Source: an uncultured Pseudomonadota bacterium
GTDB taxonomy: Bacteria; Pseudomonadota; Alphaproteobacteria; JACZXZ01
Assembly (NCBI GenBank): GCA_963749075.1
Contig: CAVVLJ010000016.1
Span: 96,001-160,000, forward strand
Length of the DNA: 64,000 nt
Reading direction: 5' to 3'
Shown here one piece after another: positions 7,975 through 60,913 of this stretch. Position 1 is the first letter of the stretch. Every line of letters starts with the position of its first letter. A program made the position numbers and the translations under genes. Under the pieces are notes generated by a model. It was not told the origin of the DNA. It worked only from the letters and a program-made list of their open reading frames with translations, and ran no database searches.

Positions 7975-9098
7975 GCGAGCCCTCCCGGTCCGACGCGCTT
8001 GCGCGTCAGCGCCAGCACCATGCCCATGCCGAGTGCCAGCGCCAGGAGCGAGGAGCCGCCGTAGCTGATGAAGGGCAGCGTCATGCCCTTGGTCGGCATG
8101 AGGCGCATCTCGGACGCCATGTTGACCACGGCCTGGAGGCCGAACTGCACGAGGAGCCCCGAGCCCGCGAGCAGCACGAAGAGATTCTGCTCCTGCATGA
8201 GCCGGCCGATGCCGCGCAGCACCACGAAAGCGAAGAGGGCGATGATGAAGAGGCAGGCGAAAAGCCCGAACTCCTCGCCGGCGACGGCAAAGACGAAATC
8301 GCTGTGCGCGTCGGGCAGGTGGAGCTTGGCGACGCCCTCGCCGGGGCCGCGGCCGAAGAGGCCGCCGTTCGAGAAGGCGTCGAGCGAGCGCTCGACCTGG
8401 TAGCTGTCGCCCTGCTGGGGATTGAGGAAGTGGTCGACGCGGACCGCCACGTGGGGCAGCGTCACATAGGCCGCGGCGAGGGCGGCTATGCCGAGCGTCA
8501 CGAAGAGCAGCGCCCAGTAGACGCGCAGCCCCGCGAGGAAGAACTGGCCGAACCACACGACGGAGACGACTACGACCATGCCGATGTCGGGCTGGGCGAC
8601 CAGGAGGGCGGCGACGATGCCGTAGAGGAGGATGGCCACGGCGTTGCCCGGCACGGCCTCGCCCTGGCGCTGCGCCGCGAACATCCAGGCGGCGACCACG
8701 GCAAAGGCCGGCTTGACGAACTCGGAGGGCTGCAGCGAGACGCCGGCGAAGTAGATCCAGCGCTTGGCACCCTTGATCTCGGTGCCGACGTAGGGTGTGA
8801 GCGCCAGCAGCACCAGCGCCGCCACGAAGACGAAGACGGAGAGCCGACGCACCCCGCGCGGCTCGAGGAGCGACACCGCCAGCATGAGGACCACGGCGGT
8901 GGGCAGGAAGACGAACTCGCGGCGCACGAAGTAGAGCGAGTCGTAGCCGATGCGCACGGCGACCGGCGGGCTCGCGGCGAGCGTCATGATGCAGCCGATG
9001 AGGGCGAGGCTGGCGAGCGCCACCAGCATCCACTTGTCGACCGTCCACCACCAGCGGCCGATGATGCTCGTGTCCGTGCGGGTGAAACTCATGCTCAT
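7971..9098 (-). CDS. ftsW: Peptidoglycan glycosyltransferase FtsW
   Basis: [37 protein letters not shown] (SEDS family). Confidence 0.97.
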
Positions 9099-52707: not shown

Positions 52708-54286
<1,579 letters not shown>

Positions 54287-54378
54287 CCGGCATACCGCAG
54301 CAGGCTGGGGCCCTCGGCAAGCGCTCCGCGCCAGCCCATTCCCCACGGACCCGTCCGGCGCGCGCCCGCGCGGCCGCA

Positions 54379-54404
54379 TGTCACAAGCTCGGCCTTTCCG
54401 CGTC
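54379..54404 (+). promoter_or_regulatory. Putative ECF-sigma promoter
   Basis: TGTCACA-N15-CGTC, 41 bp upstream of the peptidase ATG. Confidence 0.5.
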
Positions 54405-54445
54405 TAAGTTTCGAGCGTCACTTCGGACGGGAAGGACGGATCATC

Positions 54446-54991
54446 ATGTCGAACAACGTCAATAACCCCCCTGCGTTGATCGCACAGGAGACCCCAGCCT
54501 GGTGCTTCGCCGCGGCGGAGCTGATGGCGCGCAATTTCTATGGCCTCGGGACGCCCACGCAATACGCCATTGCGCGCGCGAGCATCATGGGCCTCGTGGG
54601 TGCACAGGCGCCGCCCACCTTCGCGCAATGGAACCAGGCCACGATGAGCGACCTGCTGAACGATCAGGACGAGAACAACGGCGCCAACCTCCTGAGCGAG
54701 CGCGTCCAGCTCGTGCGCAATACCTACGGCGCCATCGATCATACGGCGATCAACGGGCGCATGAGGGACAACTATACCGTCAACGAGTTCAAGGCGGACA
54801 TCGACAGCAACAACATCGTCGTCATCGGCACCGCGATCCACTATTACGTGGTCTATGGCTACGACGATGCGAAGGATTTCACGCTGCGCGTCCGGGACCC
54901 TTGGCCCGCAAACGTAGGCGGCCAAGCGGCGACCATTCCCTACGCGCAGTTCCTGGGCTGGAACGGCCGGGTCGTCATCAAATTCACTTGA
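54446..54991 (+). CDS. Papain-fold cysteine peptidase (C39/C70-like)
   Basis: AQETPAWCFAAA (Q...C), HYYVVYGYD (H), VRDPWP (D); no signal peptide. Confidence 0.8.
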   Translation: MSNNVNNPPALIAQETPAWCFAAAELMARNFYGLGTPTQYAIARASIMGLVGAQAPPTFAQWNQATMSDLLNDQDENNGANLLSERVQLVRNTYGAIDHTAINGRMRDNYTVNEFKADIDSNNIVVIGTAIHYYVVYGYDDAKDFTLRVRDPWPANVGGQAATIPYAQFLGWNGRVVIKFT

Positions 54992-55173
54992 ACCGCAGGA
55001 TCGGCCGGTCGGGGCGGAGGGGGCGCCTGGCCATCGTTCCGGCGACAAGCGCCTCGCCGTGAGCAGCACCATGCCGATGCCTTTTCTCGCGGCCGCGATC
55101 GCCATGCGCCTCAAGCGCGGCGCGTATCGCCGGGTCATCTCCTTGGCCGGTCCGAGGGCCGATCGCGCGTTGC

Positions 55174-55200
55174 CGTCACAAAGTGGCGATGCCGGGCGTC
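55174..55200 (+). promoter_or_regulatory. Putative ECF-sigma promoter
   Basis: CGTCACA-N16-CGTC, 32 bp upstream of the ATG at 55233. Confidence 0.5.
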
Positions 55201-55232
55201 AAGCCGGAGTGAAGCAGGGGAGCACGGGCGCC

Positions 55233-55847
55233 ATGCCGGACACTTATGCCAAGCTATGCGCGATCTATCTCGGCCCCTACGCGGCGCGCGGCAAGAGCTT
55301 CCACACCGACCAGACGCAGCAGGGCATCAGCCAGGCCATCGACCAGTTCGCGGCGCTCTGCCGAGACGCCGACCAGCTCATGACGCGCCTGTCAGGCGGC
55401 AAATTCCCGAGCATCGCCGCCTTCGGCACGGAGGCCGAAAGCATCCTCTTGCAGCTCAAGGCGCAATGTCAGGCGCTCGCCGAGCAGTTCGCGCAGGCCA
55501 AGATCAGCGACCAGACGAAGATATCGGCCATGGCGGTCATCAGCCAGAGCGACGGCCTCGCCGCCGCCCGCCGGCAGCAGGACGCCGATGCCAGTCTGCT
55601 CGCCAGCCTGGAGGGCTTGGCGAAGCTGGTGCAGGGCGATTTCGCCCAAGGAGAGGCGCCGCCTCAACCGGGCCCGCCGCTCCCGCCGCCGCCGGGCGGC
55701 AACGGAGGCGGGGCGCTGCCGCCGCTCGACGCCACTCGGCTCAAGACGAAGCTGAGCGGCCGCGTGACCAGGCAGCCGGACGCCGTCTCCGAGGAGATCG
55801 ACCGTTTGAGCGGGCAAGCCGCGGAATCCGCCACGCCGGACAGCTGA
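55233..55847 (+). CDS. Hypothetical alpha-helical protein with polyproline tract
   Basis: GGGGAG RBS, MPDTYAKL...; Gln/Ala-rich helices then PPQPGPPLPPPPGG. Confidence 0.75.
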   Translation: MPDTYAKLCAIYLGPYAARGKSFHTDQTQQGISQAIDQFAALCRDADQLMTRLSGGKFPSIAAFGTEAESILLQLKAQCQALAEQFAQAKISDQTKISAMAVISQSDGLAAARRQQDADASLLASLEGLAKLVQGDFAQGEAPPQPGPPLPPPPGGNGGGALPPLDATRLKTKLSGRVTRQPDAVSEEIDRLSGQAAESATPDS

Positions 55848-55888
55848 GCGCGCGCCGCGACGCACGCGCGCGAGCGAGGATGCGGGCC

Positions 55889-56803
55889 ATGACTATATCG
55901 TCCCTGGACTCTTACCGCGACTTCGTGCGCTCCGCCTGGCAGTATCTGGCCCGGCCGGAGACCGACCGCGTCCCGCTGAGGAATGTGCTCAAGGTCCTCT
56001 ACAACGCCGCGGCCGGCTATAATCCGAATGGCGTCGCAGACAAGAAGCGGCTTATCGCCAGGGATCTCTATGCGGCGCTCGCCGCCTACTGCCGCGCGAT
56101 CCAGGGCAAGCGAGCGCGGCTCCAGCTGAGCGGTCCTTGGCGCGACGTGACCGACGACCTTGGTGCGTATGCGGACTACTACGAGGCCGTCCTGGGCTCG
56201 GGGCAGCCCAAGCCGAACCCTGAAGCCATGGATTTGGCGACGAGATATCTGCACGTCTATCCCGCCGAGCCGGCGAAGAACGATTGGCGCCTCGGACTCA
56301 ACGTCGAGCCGCGCAGCATGGCGTCGGCGGCGAAGGCGCTCGTGCCGCTCCTCGACAAGTTCCCCGACATCGGCCACATGAAGTTTTTCGGGCCCGGCGC
56401 TGCGGGAAAGGCCGACTCGGTCATCGTCTACCTGCGCAAGACGGAGCGCTACAACCGGTTGCGCAACGCCGTCCTCGACGCCGTCAAGGGGCTCGCCATC
56501 CAGCCGCGCGTCGGCGCCATGTGGAACGAGATCGGCGACGGCATCGGGGAGGCGTCGGAGTCGCCCCGAGCAAGCTTCACCCAATACCGGTGCCTCGCGA
56601 TCTATGCGGCGTTTCTCGCCTATTCGGAGACGGCCGGGCCGCACAGCTGGAGCGACTTCAAGGCGGCGCTGAACACCGTCCTGCCCGCGTTCGGCATCGA
56701 CCCGCGGGCGCCTCATATGCGCGCGCCGCGCCGCACGCAGGACCCCAACTATCCCGCCTATTGGGACGTCTTCTGCTGGCTCTATGCGATCTTGAGGGGC
56801 TGA
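55889..56803 (+). CDS. HopA1-family-like protein (putative phospho-Ser/Thr lyase fold)
   Basis: WRLGLNV, MKFFGPGAAGKADSVIVYL, GIGEASESPRASFTQYRC follow the HopA1-domain motif order (R.Y.N / K..R.D..V.Y / G...EP..SFG..RC). Confidence 0.72.
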   Translation: MTISSLDSYRDFVRSAWQYLARPETDRVPLRNVLKVLYNAAAGYNPNGVADKKRLIARDLYAALAAYCRAIQGKRARLQLSGPWRDVTDDLGAYADYYEAVLGSGQPKPNPEAMDLATRYLHVYPAEPAKNDWRLGLNVEPRSMASAAKALVPLLDKFPDIGHMKFFGPGAAGKADSVIVYLRKTERYNRLRNAVLDAVKGLAIQPRVGAMWNEIGDGIGEASESPRASFTQYRCLAIYAAFLAYSETAGPHSWSDFKAALNTVLPAFGIDPRAPHMRAPRRTQDPNYPAYWDVFCWLYAILRG

Positions 56804-56812
56804 GCCCGCGGC

Positions 56813-57298
56813 TCACTCGCGGAAGTTGGTGAATTGGAGCGGCTGCTCGATCTTGAGGCCGCGGACATGGGCGATGGCCGCCTGCAGGTCGTCCCTCTTC
56901 TTGCCGCTCACGCGCAGCTCGTCGCCCTGGATCGCCACCTGGACCTTGAGCTTGCTGTCCTTGAGCTCCTTGACCAGGCGTTTGGCGAGCTCGCGGTCGA
57001 CGCCCTGCTTCACCACGATCTCCTGGCGCAGCGTATCCCCCGACGCGCGCTCCGGCTCCTTGAAGTCGAGCGCTGAGGGATCGACCTTGCGCCGCACGAG
57101 ATGCCCCTTGAGGAGCTCGTGCATCTGCTTCAGTTTGAGCCGGTCGTCGGCGTGAAGGGTGAGCACCGCCTCCTGCCGCTCGATCCTGCACTTCGAGTTC
57201 TTGAAGTCGAAGCGCGTGGCGATCTCGCGCGCCAGGTTGGCGAGCGCGTTGTCGACCTCGCTGAGGTCGGTCTTGGAGACGATGTCAAAGCTCGGCAT
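56813..57298 (-). CDS. yajQ: YajQ-family nucleotide-binding protein
   Basis: MPSFDIVS, RFDFK, QGDELRVSGKKRDDLQ, NFRE. Confidence 0.96.
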   Translation of the reverse strand: MPSFDIVSKTDLSEVDNALANLAREIATRFDFKNSKCRIERQEAVLTLHADDRLKLKQMHELLKGHLVRRKVDPSALDFKEPERASGDTLRQEIVVKQGVDRELAKRLVKELKDSKLKVQVAIQGDELRVSGKKRDDLQAAIAHVRGLKIEQPLQFTNFRE

Positions 57299-57325
57299 GG
57301 CGATTTCCCGCGGCAAAACCCGTCG

Positions 57326-57823
57326 TCACCGGGCGAGGCTCTCTCCGAGGAGCGTCAACGCCGCAGCGGCGAAGGCGCGCATGTTGGCGAGGCGGTCGGC
57401 ATTGCCGGTCTCGAGCGTGAGAGCGTGCTCGACGGCGCCGGCGATGGCGAGGCAGGCGTGACCGGCCGCATCGCCGTAACGATTGCCGCTCGGTCCCGTG
57501 GCGCCGGTCTCGGCAAGGCCCCAGCTCGCCGAGAAGCGCTCGCGCACCGTGCGCGCAAGGAGGAGCGCATAGGGCTCGGTCGCCGAGCGGATGCCGACGA
57601 GTGCCTCCTCCGTGATGCCGAGGAGCGCCCCGCGCGCGCGATAGGTGTAGACGACGGCGCCGCCGAGGTAATAGGCGGAGGCGCCTGGAACGGCGAGGAG
57701 GGCGGCGGAGAGGAGGCCGCCAGCCGACGACTCGGCGACCGCGATGCTCTCGCCGCGCTCCTTGAGGAGCGCTGCCGCCTTTTCGGCCAGAGGGAGAAGA
57801 TCATGTGGGAGGAGATCCTGCAC
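57326..57823 (-). CDS. CinA C-terminal/PncC-family protein
   Basis: AVAESSAGG, VPGASAYYLGG, AETGATGP. Confidence 0.88.
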   Translation of the reverse strand: MQDLLPHDLLPLAEKAAALLKERGESIAVAESSAGGLLSAALLAVPGASAYYLGGAVVYTYRARGALLGITEEALVGIRSATEPYALLLARTVRERFSASWGLAETGATGPSGNRYGDAAGHACLAIAGAVEHALTLETGNADRLANMRAFAAAALTLLGESLAR

Positions 57824-58047
57824 GGCCGCCCTACCTTTCCCTTGTGCGTTGCGGTGCCGGGACGCGCCGACTATAGGACGGAGCACGCGCCGCACAAAGC
57901 CCTTGCGAGCTTCGGGCGAAACATCGTACACATAGCTGCCGCCTTGATTCTCAAAGGTTTTTTTGTGGAATCGCGGCGGCGTGCGTGAGGATTTGCCGAG
58001 CTTTCCCAAGGCACTAGCCGTAAGGGAAGGCCCGGGAGGACGACTGG

Positions 58048-58179
58048 ATGGACCGCAGCGCAGCCATTCGCCTCTCGGCTGGCGCGCCCCTCGTGGCGCG
58101 GGTCCGTTCGCGTCTTGCCGGTCTCGTCTCTCTCTTGCTCCTCCGTGGTGGTGCCGCACGCCGACTTAGCAGCCCCTGA
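58048..58179 (+). CDS. Leucine-rich leader peptide of leuA (43 aa)
   Basis: GGGAGGA RBS; MDRSAAIRLSAGAPLVARVRSRLAGLVSLLLLRGGAARRLSSP, with four consecutive Leu codons. Confidence 0.75.
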   Translation: MDRSAAIRLSAGAPLVARVRSRLAGLVSLLLLRGGAARRLSSP

Positions 58180-58263
58180 GCGCCGTCCCGGGAGCGATCC
58201 GGGCGTTCAGGGGAGGAGATCGGTGTTGCGCTTGCTGCATGTTCGGACCGGAGGACCCAGACC

Positions 58264-58267
<4 letters not shown>
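58132..58267 (+). promoter_or_regulatory. leuA attenuator-like RNA structure
   Basis: Stem CCCCTGAGCGCC (58173-84) / GGCGTTCAGGGG (58202-13); Leu codons CTCCTCC (58138-44) are complementary to GGAGGAG (58212-18). Confidence 0.7.

Positions 58268-60913
<2,646 letters not shown>

Follow-up and report, generated by a model that had tools for sequence, protein, structure and literature searches.

The cassette between ilvC and yajQ

The 64,000-nucleotide stretch analysed here (the window; positions 96,001 to 160,000 of contig CAVVLJ010000016.1 from an uncultured alphaproteobacterium) carries three co-oriented genes between ilvC and yajQ, referred to below as g1, g2 and g3 and together as the cassette. 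They encode a papain-like cysteine peptidase, a protein of no known family and a putative phospho-Ser/Thr lyase of the HopA1/LanY fold. A first-pass annotation, made from the sequence of the window, had placed the three under a shared promoter and had seen in them either effectors of a delivery device encoded elsewhere or a minimal module of protein modification. The comparisons presented here relate them to R-bodies, which are coiled protein ribbons that burst membranes. The cassette as a whole is best explained as a detached, trans-encoded part of the sigma regulon of the R-body (reb) genes that carries candidate cargo, an explanation to which we give slightly better than even chances. The features of the locus are the following.

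53267-54286: ilvC, with KARI_N and KARI_C domains
54381-54404 (54380-54404 in the GTCACA form), plus strand: predicted promoter of g1, TCACAAGCTCGGCCTTTCCGCGTC, preceded by TG to read TGTCACA-N15-CGTC; ends 41 nt before the g1 start
54446-54991, plus strand: g1, 181-aa papain-like cysteine peptidase, C39_2/C70-like
55176-55200 (55175-55200 in the GTCACA form), plus strand: predicted promoter of g2-g3, TCACAAAGTGGCGATGCCGGGCGTC, GTCACA-N16-CGTC; ends 32 nt before the g2 start
55233-55847, plus strand: g2, 204 aa, no known family; starts at an ATG behind a GGGGAG ribosome-binding site
55889-56803, plus strand: g3, 304-aa HopA1/LanY-fold protein, putative phospho-Ser/Thr lyase
56813-57316, minus strand: yajQ (DUF520), convergent with g1 to g3

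The open reading frames (ORFs) of the three genes lie where the first-pass annotation had put them. The longest possible ORF of g2 begins at 55059 and g3 has an alternative ATG at 55880; the distance of 41 nt between g2 and g3 that had been reported holds for a g3 start at 55889. Because g3 begins 41 nt past g2 with no motif between them, the two look like one operon. Inspection by eye found no hydrophobic signal-like stretch at the N-termini of g1, g2 or g3, in line with the earlier call that signal peptides are absent, and no sigma-70-like promoter was found within 54200-57000.

The GTCACA-N15/16-CGTC sites described ahead of the first two genes are present, at 54380-54404 and 55175-55200. 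Counted in the form TCACA-N15/16-CGTC, the window has two matches where 0.84 would be expected, and shuffling gives at least two in 22 of 100 trials, which is no enrichment; it is the position of the sites and their conservation that place the motif above chance. In G006, a genome of the same genus, the same cassette occupies the same ilvC/yajQ junction (identity 73% for g1, 64% for g2 and 67% for g3), and both sites are kept at the same distances in flanking intergenic DNA that has diverged (the counterpart of the g1 site is at L003 8923). Both are likewise kept on the metagenome contig L041, where the surrounding intergenic DNA is different. The shared promoter is real, and each checkable detail of what the first-pass annotation had observed was borne out.

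The promoter motif and the reb clusters

The source genome of the window (G000, 5.49 Mb) has eight matches to RebB (PF11747, 'killing trait'), seven of which are clustered at C20:475301-477883, on another contig than the cassette. Adjoining this cluster is a gene for a sigma factor of the extracytoplasmic function (ECF) type (C20:473902-474825), which passes the general ECF model TIGR02937 only and is 48% identical to the sigma factor of a Rhizomicrobium reb locus. A scan of the genome returned 26 strict matches to TCACA-N15/16-CGTC. Two of the matches are those of the cassette. Another four lie in the reb cluster, where two reb genes, the sigma gene and a gene for an 85-aa protein each have one in the sense orientation at a distance of 17-120 nt upstream. 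The last of these genes heads a small operon, encodes a coiled-coil protein and, together with a gene for a 152-aa Ala-rich protein, precedes the reb-linked sigma gene under its own motif (C20:472969-473703; L023 6969-7703). Neither belongs to a known family, similar small genes lie ahead of the sigma gene in L005-L007, and the two are candidate regulators of the sigma factor.

The same pattern recurs in other genomes. A search for g3 relatives that used one genome per species and was blind to other genes gave 11 loci, G006 among them; with G000 included, the g3-bearing set comprises 12 genomes from about six groups as judged by record titles (one of them, G013 with locus L007, is unpublished, and without it each count of 12/12 given here is 11/11). 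RebB is present in all 12 genomes, with 6-13 matches in each, and a g2 homologue lies directly upstream of g3 in 12/12 by tblastn and ORF reading. The motif stands upstream of the first g2 in every one of them (nine exact, three with TCACG), and the 12 loci, about 200 kb in total, hold 40 copies against 2.71 expected from dinucleotide shuffles. L005 alone has seven copies against 0.23 expected, a number that none of 200 shuffles reaches, and these stand ahead of g2 and the gene divergent from it, of the sigma gene and of four Reb genes. Reb genes are found no more than about 7 kb from g2-g3 in five of the 12 genomes (L005, L006, L007, L011 and L012). The neighbours of g2-g3 in the Rhizomicrobium-type loci are RebB genes and an ECF-family sigma gene, and in L005, L007 and L012 the adjacent sigma factor is 47-50% identical to the reb sigma of G000. 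Copies are also found inside the reb clusters of genomes that lack g3 (five in G162, four in G051 and one in G055), and none inside those of G198 and G308. Because the pattern recurs across loci, the motif is read as the promoter of one class of reb clusters in Alphaproteobacteria, carried in trans by the cassette, and on this sequence evidence the cassette very probably belongs to the regulon.

A sample of 401 genomes drawn evenly from the class gives the same association from the other side. RebB occurs in 14 of these genomes, 11 of which have at least six matches. A scan with the g3 profile, in which no more than five first-look candidates were scored per genome, found g3 in two, G000 and G006, both reb-positive and the same two that have g1, and in none of the 387 reb-negative genomes. 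Within the family, reb is present in four of 11 genomes and g3 in two of those four. From these class- and family-level counts, g3 was never seen without reb, and reb usually occurs without g3. A whole-genome search with PF17914 missed g3 in G000, although the protein itself scores above the cut-off by hmmscan; the blanks of that search in nine other genomes (eight of them reb-positive) are for this reason uninformative, and with short or divergent domains a blank of this kind is no sign of absence.

The motif might alternatively mark an unrelated ECF stress regulon, for example of the ECF41 type, with the link to reb being coincidental. The ECF41 target motif, TGTCACA-N16-CGTC, resembles that of the cassette, and one copy in G000 lies upstream of an RpoH-like sigma gene. 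However, no TIGR02957 (SigJ/ECF41-type) sigma factor was found in G000, where the best match to this model (36.6 bits against 323) is the reb sigma itself; copies of the motif are concentrated in reb loci across many genomes and stand before the sigma gene linked to reb; and g2-g3 lies within reb clusters in five genomes. A coincidence of this kind is therefore highly improbable. The copy at the RpoH-like gene (C4:435545, minus strand) is an exact TCACAA-N15-CGTCAAT site 126 nt upstream of a sigma-70-family gene of 297 aa (L054 101-994), whose product has regions 1.2, 2, 3 and 4 and is RpoH-like by size and architecture; it may represent cross-talk with the heat-shock sigma factor, or chance. 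Another exact site, GTCACAAG-...-GCGTC at C20:60627, stands 60 nt upstream of an 89-aa ORF without a Pfam family (L055 211-480), which may be a further member of the regulon.

Regarding the placement of the cassette, ilvC and yajQ are separated by only about 80-90 bp in G002, another species of the genus, and this junction is empty (L026). Because it is empty there, the cassette is taken to be an insert in this genus. A recent insertion by a mobile element was considered and rejected, since notable flanking repeats are missing and none of the ORFs encodes an integrase or transposase; the first-pass annotation had likewise seen none nearby. In the reb-positive genome G005 the junction ends in contig breaks and has other genes (L027 1-1120, L035 1-1500), including a 433-aa ORF that is opposite in strand to ilvC and reads as serine-peptidase-like; the strict motif is absent from this junction. 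The ilvC/yajQ junction is thus variable within the genus. Outside it, Tistlia and two Rhodovibrionaceae genomes carry g2-g3 between ilvC and leuA, as the window does (L008 5300-10898, L009 6112-12569 and L010 6132-8987; window 53267-59811). These carriers belong to different groups, and the remaining intervening genes differ. The shared placement may be due to ancient vertical inheritance or to a favoured site of insertion.

The three proteins and their relatives

The assignment of g3 to the HopA1-like proteins by the first-pass annotation is borne out both by the Pfam HopA1 model (PF17914, 31.9 bits against a cut-off of 22.7) and by structure. The AlphaFold model of g3 (pLDDT, a score of local confidence, 94.1; predicted template modelling score, pTM, 0.90) matches HopA1 of Pseudomonas syringae over nearly the whole crystallised domain (4RSX: Foldseek E 3.7e-12, VIA-align Z 20.2, root-mean-square deviation 2.8, 243 of 257 residues aligned; 4RSW: Z 19.1). 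Further matches are to 9dk1_B (Foldseek E 2.4e-9), to LxmY, the lyase subunit of the lexapeptide dehydratase (9dk3_B, Z 17.6), and to OspF, SpvC and class III lyase domains (Z 9-10). The family profile of g3 aligns to HopA1 across the R...K...D-S...Y block that contains R134, K165, D176 and Y181, and these four residues together with K174 are invariant in 13 sequences. The spacing of R134, K165, K174 and Y181 matches that of R187, K219, R229 and Y236 in CaoY, a correspondence of spacing only and not a residue-level superposition. A passage of PMC9486802 reports that K219A abolishes the lyase activity of CaoY and that R187A impairs dehydration, and treats the residues as catalytic or active-site. 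We infer that g3, a putative phospho-Ser/Thr lyase, is probably catalytically competent.

The likeness to HopA1 extends to gene order. A small partner gene lies immediately upstream of g3, and in P. syringae the arrangement is shcA, for the chaperone ShcA, followed by hopA1. In contrast to HopA1, g3 is only 19-22% identical to it in sequence, comes from a genome with no type III secretion system (T3SS) secretin above the cut-off, follows a partner whose helical bundle has no significant structural match, and stands under an ECF-type promoter common to reb.

The g3 family is small: a search of 1.84 billion proteins gave 43 representatives at E <= 1e-30. Among 24 relatives hand-picked by length, 11 have an N-terminal eCIS_core/DUF4157 domain, four are HopA1-LanC fusions, and several are large proteins with the HopA1 domain at the extreme C-terminus. 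The G006 orthologue combines eCIS_core (PF13699/DUF4157) with HopA1, whereas g3 of the window lacks PF13699; because the closest relatives have DUF4157, its loss in the lineage of the window is likely. As described in the relevant part of PMC8213781, DUF4157 at the N-terminus marks the toxins of extracellular contractile injection systems (eCIS), and the architecture of these relatives is the one reported for such toxins. A search for g3 in plasmids by tblastn gave no match.

In three Rhizomicrobium-type loci g3 is in tandem duplicate behind a single g2 (L005 7063-8891, L006 7042-8921, L007 6851-8703), and a Magnetovibrio metagenome-assembled genome has the entire g2-g3 pair duplicated (L013 7150-10871). 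Two overlapping frames (7986-8642 and 8347-9021) make up the g3 homologue of Magnetovibrio blakemorei MV-1 (L014 7986-9021), as the result either of a frameshift or of a sequencing error.

These relatives bear on the suggestion of the first-pass annotation that the cassette supplies effectors to a T3SS, type VI secretion system (T6SS) or eCIS encoded elsewhere. In its favour, HopA1 is a T3SS effector according to the titles of its PDB entries, G000 has two matches to the T6SS sheath protein TssC (C20:505788-508284), and close relatives of g3 carry the marker of eCIS toxins. Against it, TssC is found in only one of the 12 g3-bearing genomes, G000 itself; Phage_sheath_1 is found in four, which include neither G000 nor G006; and no T3SS secretin exceeds the TIGR02516 cut-off in G000 or G006 (114 bits against 238). 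The genes next to the cassette do not include PAAR, VgrG or Hcp, and its promoter is moreover that of reb genes. PF13699 has no match in the G000 genome, a weak negative, as is that for PF06841, since neither genome search gave a match in any control genome. T3SS, T6SS and eCIS do not track with g2-g3, and the reb cluster does, in 12/12. The idea that the cassette serves a device encoded elsewhere agrees with the evidence, whereas service to one of these three systems is very improbable. Because no Phage_sheath_1 gene was found in G000 or G006, DUF4157 appears to occur in this genus outside any detectable eCIS; it is here that g3 departs from the eCIS toxins, in addition to the absence of DUF4157 from the copy in the window.

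A different relationship is to the LanY, LxmY and CaoY lyases of class V lanthipeptide and thioamitide pathways, to which g3 is similar in fold (Z 17-17.6) and in the Arg/Lys/Tyr spacing of CaoY. Unlike those systems, the cassette has no APH-type kinase, precursor peptide, LanC, decarboxylase or exporter, and its context is one of R-body genes in proteobacteria, where theirs is an actinobacterial biosynthetic cluster. The cassette might alternatively serve the maturation of R-bodies: with a kinase, g3 would convert Ser and Thr of Reb proteins to dehydro-residues, which would cross-link the ribbon, g1 would trim Reb or g2, and g2 would act as a scaffold. The genes would then take part in building the R-body and would not be carried by it. 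R-body proteins form covalent ladders that are insoluble in sodium dodecyl sulphate, and the N-termini of Reb proteins are rich in Ser and Thr (VNGQITDAVTQ). Among enzymatically characterised proteins, those nearest to g3 in structure are LxmY, a dehydratase subunit, and lanthipeptide lyase domains, and the regulon evidence is identical to that for a cargo. Nevertheless, no kinase is present in the cassette or under the motif at the sites inspected, and LanY-type lyases work in complex with an APH-type kinase, according to a passage of PMC9486802. Close relatives of g3 are fused to the toxin marker DUF4157, and g3 is missing from nine of the 11 class-sample genomes with multi-copy reb, as it is from two genomes of the same genus, G004 and G005, so that R-bodies are evidently made without it. 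A role in maturation is accordingly unlikely, though it is the best placed of the alternatives to a cargo.

Turning to g2, no Pfam or NCBIfam family matches it. Its model (pLDDT 81.4, above 90 for residues 1-140) confidently predicts a bundle of four helices at the N-terminus (1-141), followed by a proline-rich linker that is disordered (142-166) and by a short C-terminal segment; the protein contains a PQPGPPLPPPPG tract. The C-terminal segment ends in (I/L)xx(L/I)(S/G)G(Q/A/V) and an acidic tail, with an invariant Gly in the alignment of 13 sequences (A2), and this motif is the best-conserved part beyond the bundle. Foldseek against the PDB gave nothing better than E 0.064 for g2, a search for homologous proteins returned only the query's own cluster, and the protein atlas yielded no usable match.

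The peptidase g1 has a different history. It scores 21.8 bits with Peptidase_C39_2 (PF13529), under the cut-off of 24; nevertheless many of its 45 homologues have PF13529 and/or PF12385, and Q14, C20, H132 and D151 are invariant in an alignment of 22 sequences, which upholds the papain-like C39/C70 assignment of the first-pass annotation. By analogy these four residues would form the catalytic set. The family is widespread and consists of stand-alone papain-like peptidases of about 180 aa, with members in Dyella (70% identity), Rhizobium, Agrobacterium, Ensifer and Desulfatibacillum; the GC content of g1 is below that of its surroundings, at 0.61-0.62 against about 0.68 for the genome. It was found with g2-g3 only in this genus and is lacking in 10 of the 12 genomes with g2-g3. 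Among 13 metagenome loci with g1 relatives, two are the same cassette, one (L042) has the motif, and the other ten are without the strict motif as well as without reb, g2 and g3. On the short contig L042 (115-2763) a g1 relative of 49% identity has an exact motif that ends 33 nt before its start, and a 540-aa ORF with a twin-arginine-like N-terminus follows, open at the contig end. Membership of g1 in the core module was rejected on the grounds of its absence from those 10 genomes. The unit of three genes proposed in the first-pass annotation therefore stands in part: on the neighbourhoods of homologues, which that annotation had proposed to compare, g2 and g3 occur together in 12/12, whereas g1 was found with them in this genus alone, and most of its wider family is without the motif. 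The conserved core, as judged from these sequences, is the g2-g3 pair and not the trio, and g1 is apparently a recruit to the regulon in this genus.

The protein-modification module of the first-pass annotation would resemble a pathway for peptides that are made on ribosomes and modified after translation (RiPPs), with g1 cutting g2 at its C-terminal Gly motif and g3 modifying g2. C39 peptidases process double-glycine sites, which the conserved g2 motif with its invariant Gly resembles; g1 is C39-like with its Q/C/H/D set intact, and the HopA1 fold is present in lanthipeptide synthetases. However, the g2 motif is kept in all 12 g2-g3 genomes, including the 10 without g1, and the segment past it is just 8-12 residues or so and poorly conserved. 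The cassette has neither the kinase partner of LanY nor a cyclase or exporter, and no precursor peptide, which g2, as a folded helical bundle of 140 residues, does not resemble. This module is kept as an alternative, with very little probability.

Proposed place of the cassette in R-body biology

What comparison shows is a common promoter, co-occurrence with reb, adjacency to reb in some genomes, and the fold. As in reb clusters with a dedicated ECF-type sigma factor (FecI2/RcgA/RapA of Pseudomonas aeruginosa PA14, and the 'Group 2' synteny of Raymann et al.; passages of PMC8322103 and PMC3583457), multi-copy RebB genes stand beside an ECF-family sigma gene, which here appears to be autoregulated. 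In PA14 the reb genes are driven by the sigma factor FecI2 together with RcgA, and RapA, which is co-encoded, associates or co-localises with R-bodies, as a passage of PMC8322103 describes; the cassette resembles this system in that non-Reb proteins would be co-regulated with the ribbon, for which damage to eukaryotic cells has been proposed (passages of PMC8322103 and PMC3583457). Reb-specific hypothetical proteins and a sigma factor near reb were put forward as regulator or toxin candidates in the relevant part of Raymann et al. 2013 (PMC3583457). In contrast to known reb clusters, the genes of the cassette are on another contig and are linked by the promoter alone. The passages of Schulz et al. 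2015 (PMC4362757) that name FecI2 give no promoter motif, and the portions consulted of the R-body papers cited mention neither a HopA1-fold lyase with its partner nor a papain-like peptidase. In the literature collection searched, no paper has both 'HopA1' and 'R-bodies' or 'R-body'. What is new here is the link of the cassette to R-bodies.

Under the explanation preferred here, the reb-linked and apparently autoregulated ECF sigma factor would recognise TCACA-N15/16-CGTC before its own gene, the reb genes and a small regulatory operon and, in trans, before g1 and g2-g3. Commitment to R-body production would then also bring about the synthesis of three cytoplasmic proteins without signal peptides. 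Unrolling of the R-body would rupture the bacterium and the phagosome or vacuole around it, and g3 would be released into the cytosol of the predator or host. There it would remove phosphate from phosphoserine and phosphothreonine of signalling proteins irreversibly, by beta-elimination, in the manner of OspF-type effectors. g2 may act as chaperone or inhibitor of g3 or as its tether to the R-body, and g1 may be a lineage-specific second cargo or a processing peptidase, recruited under the same promoter.

Because the cassette carries a promoter that also drives reb genes, g3 is a candidate R-body toxin. A role of the cassette as cargo or effector is tentative, with chances a little short of even, and thus much less secure than its place in the regulon. 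A fuller version, in which g3 is a lyase made together with the ribbon, held or tethered by g2 and released into a grazing protist to inactivate phosphorylated signalling proteins, is possible but somewhat doubtful; DUF4157 would then be a general cargo-handling module beyond contractile injection systems.

Several observations weigh against this explanation as a whole or against parts of it. Counts of the motif alone give no enrichment across the G000 genome, and its specificity is imperfect, with copies also before the RpoH-like sigma gene and other genes. The 12 g3-bearing genomes are not independent, falling as they do into about six groups. A T6SS lies about 28 kb from the reb cluster of G000 on the same contig (G006 has none). 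A lyase of this type requires a phosphorylated substrate, and none is known here. Because most reb-positive genomes are without g3, it is not needed for R-bodies. Finally, the sequencing runs that contain the stretch are of soil-metagenome DNA only, with no RNA run among them.

R-bodies have for decades been regarded as toxin-delivery devices. Their toxin was still called unknown in 2013 (PMC3583457) and in 2026 (PMC13430693, PMC13689365), in the parts of these papers that concern it. The g2-g3 module, found only in reb-bearing genomes, is a testable toxin candidate with culturable carriers in Tistlia consotensis and Magnetovibrio blakemorei. The promoter signature of one class of alphaproteobacterial reb clusters offers a tool for finding members of the regulon away from the cluster, and the genomes described here are a case of the eCIS toxin marker DUF4157 in the absence of a detectable eCIS. 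If instead the lyase should prove to modify the ribbon, the finding would bear on the covalent insolubility of R-bodies.

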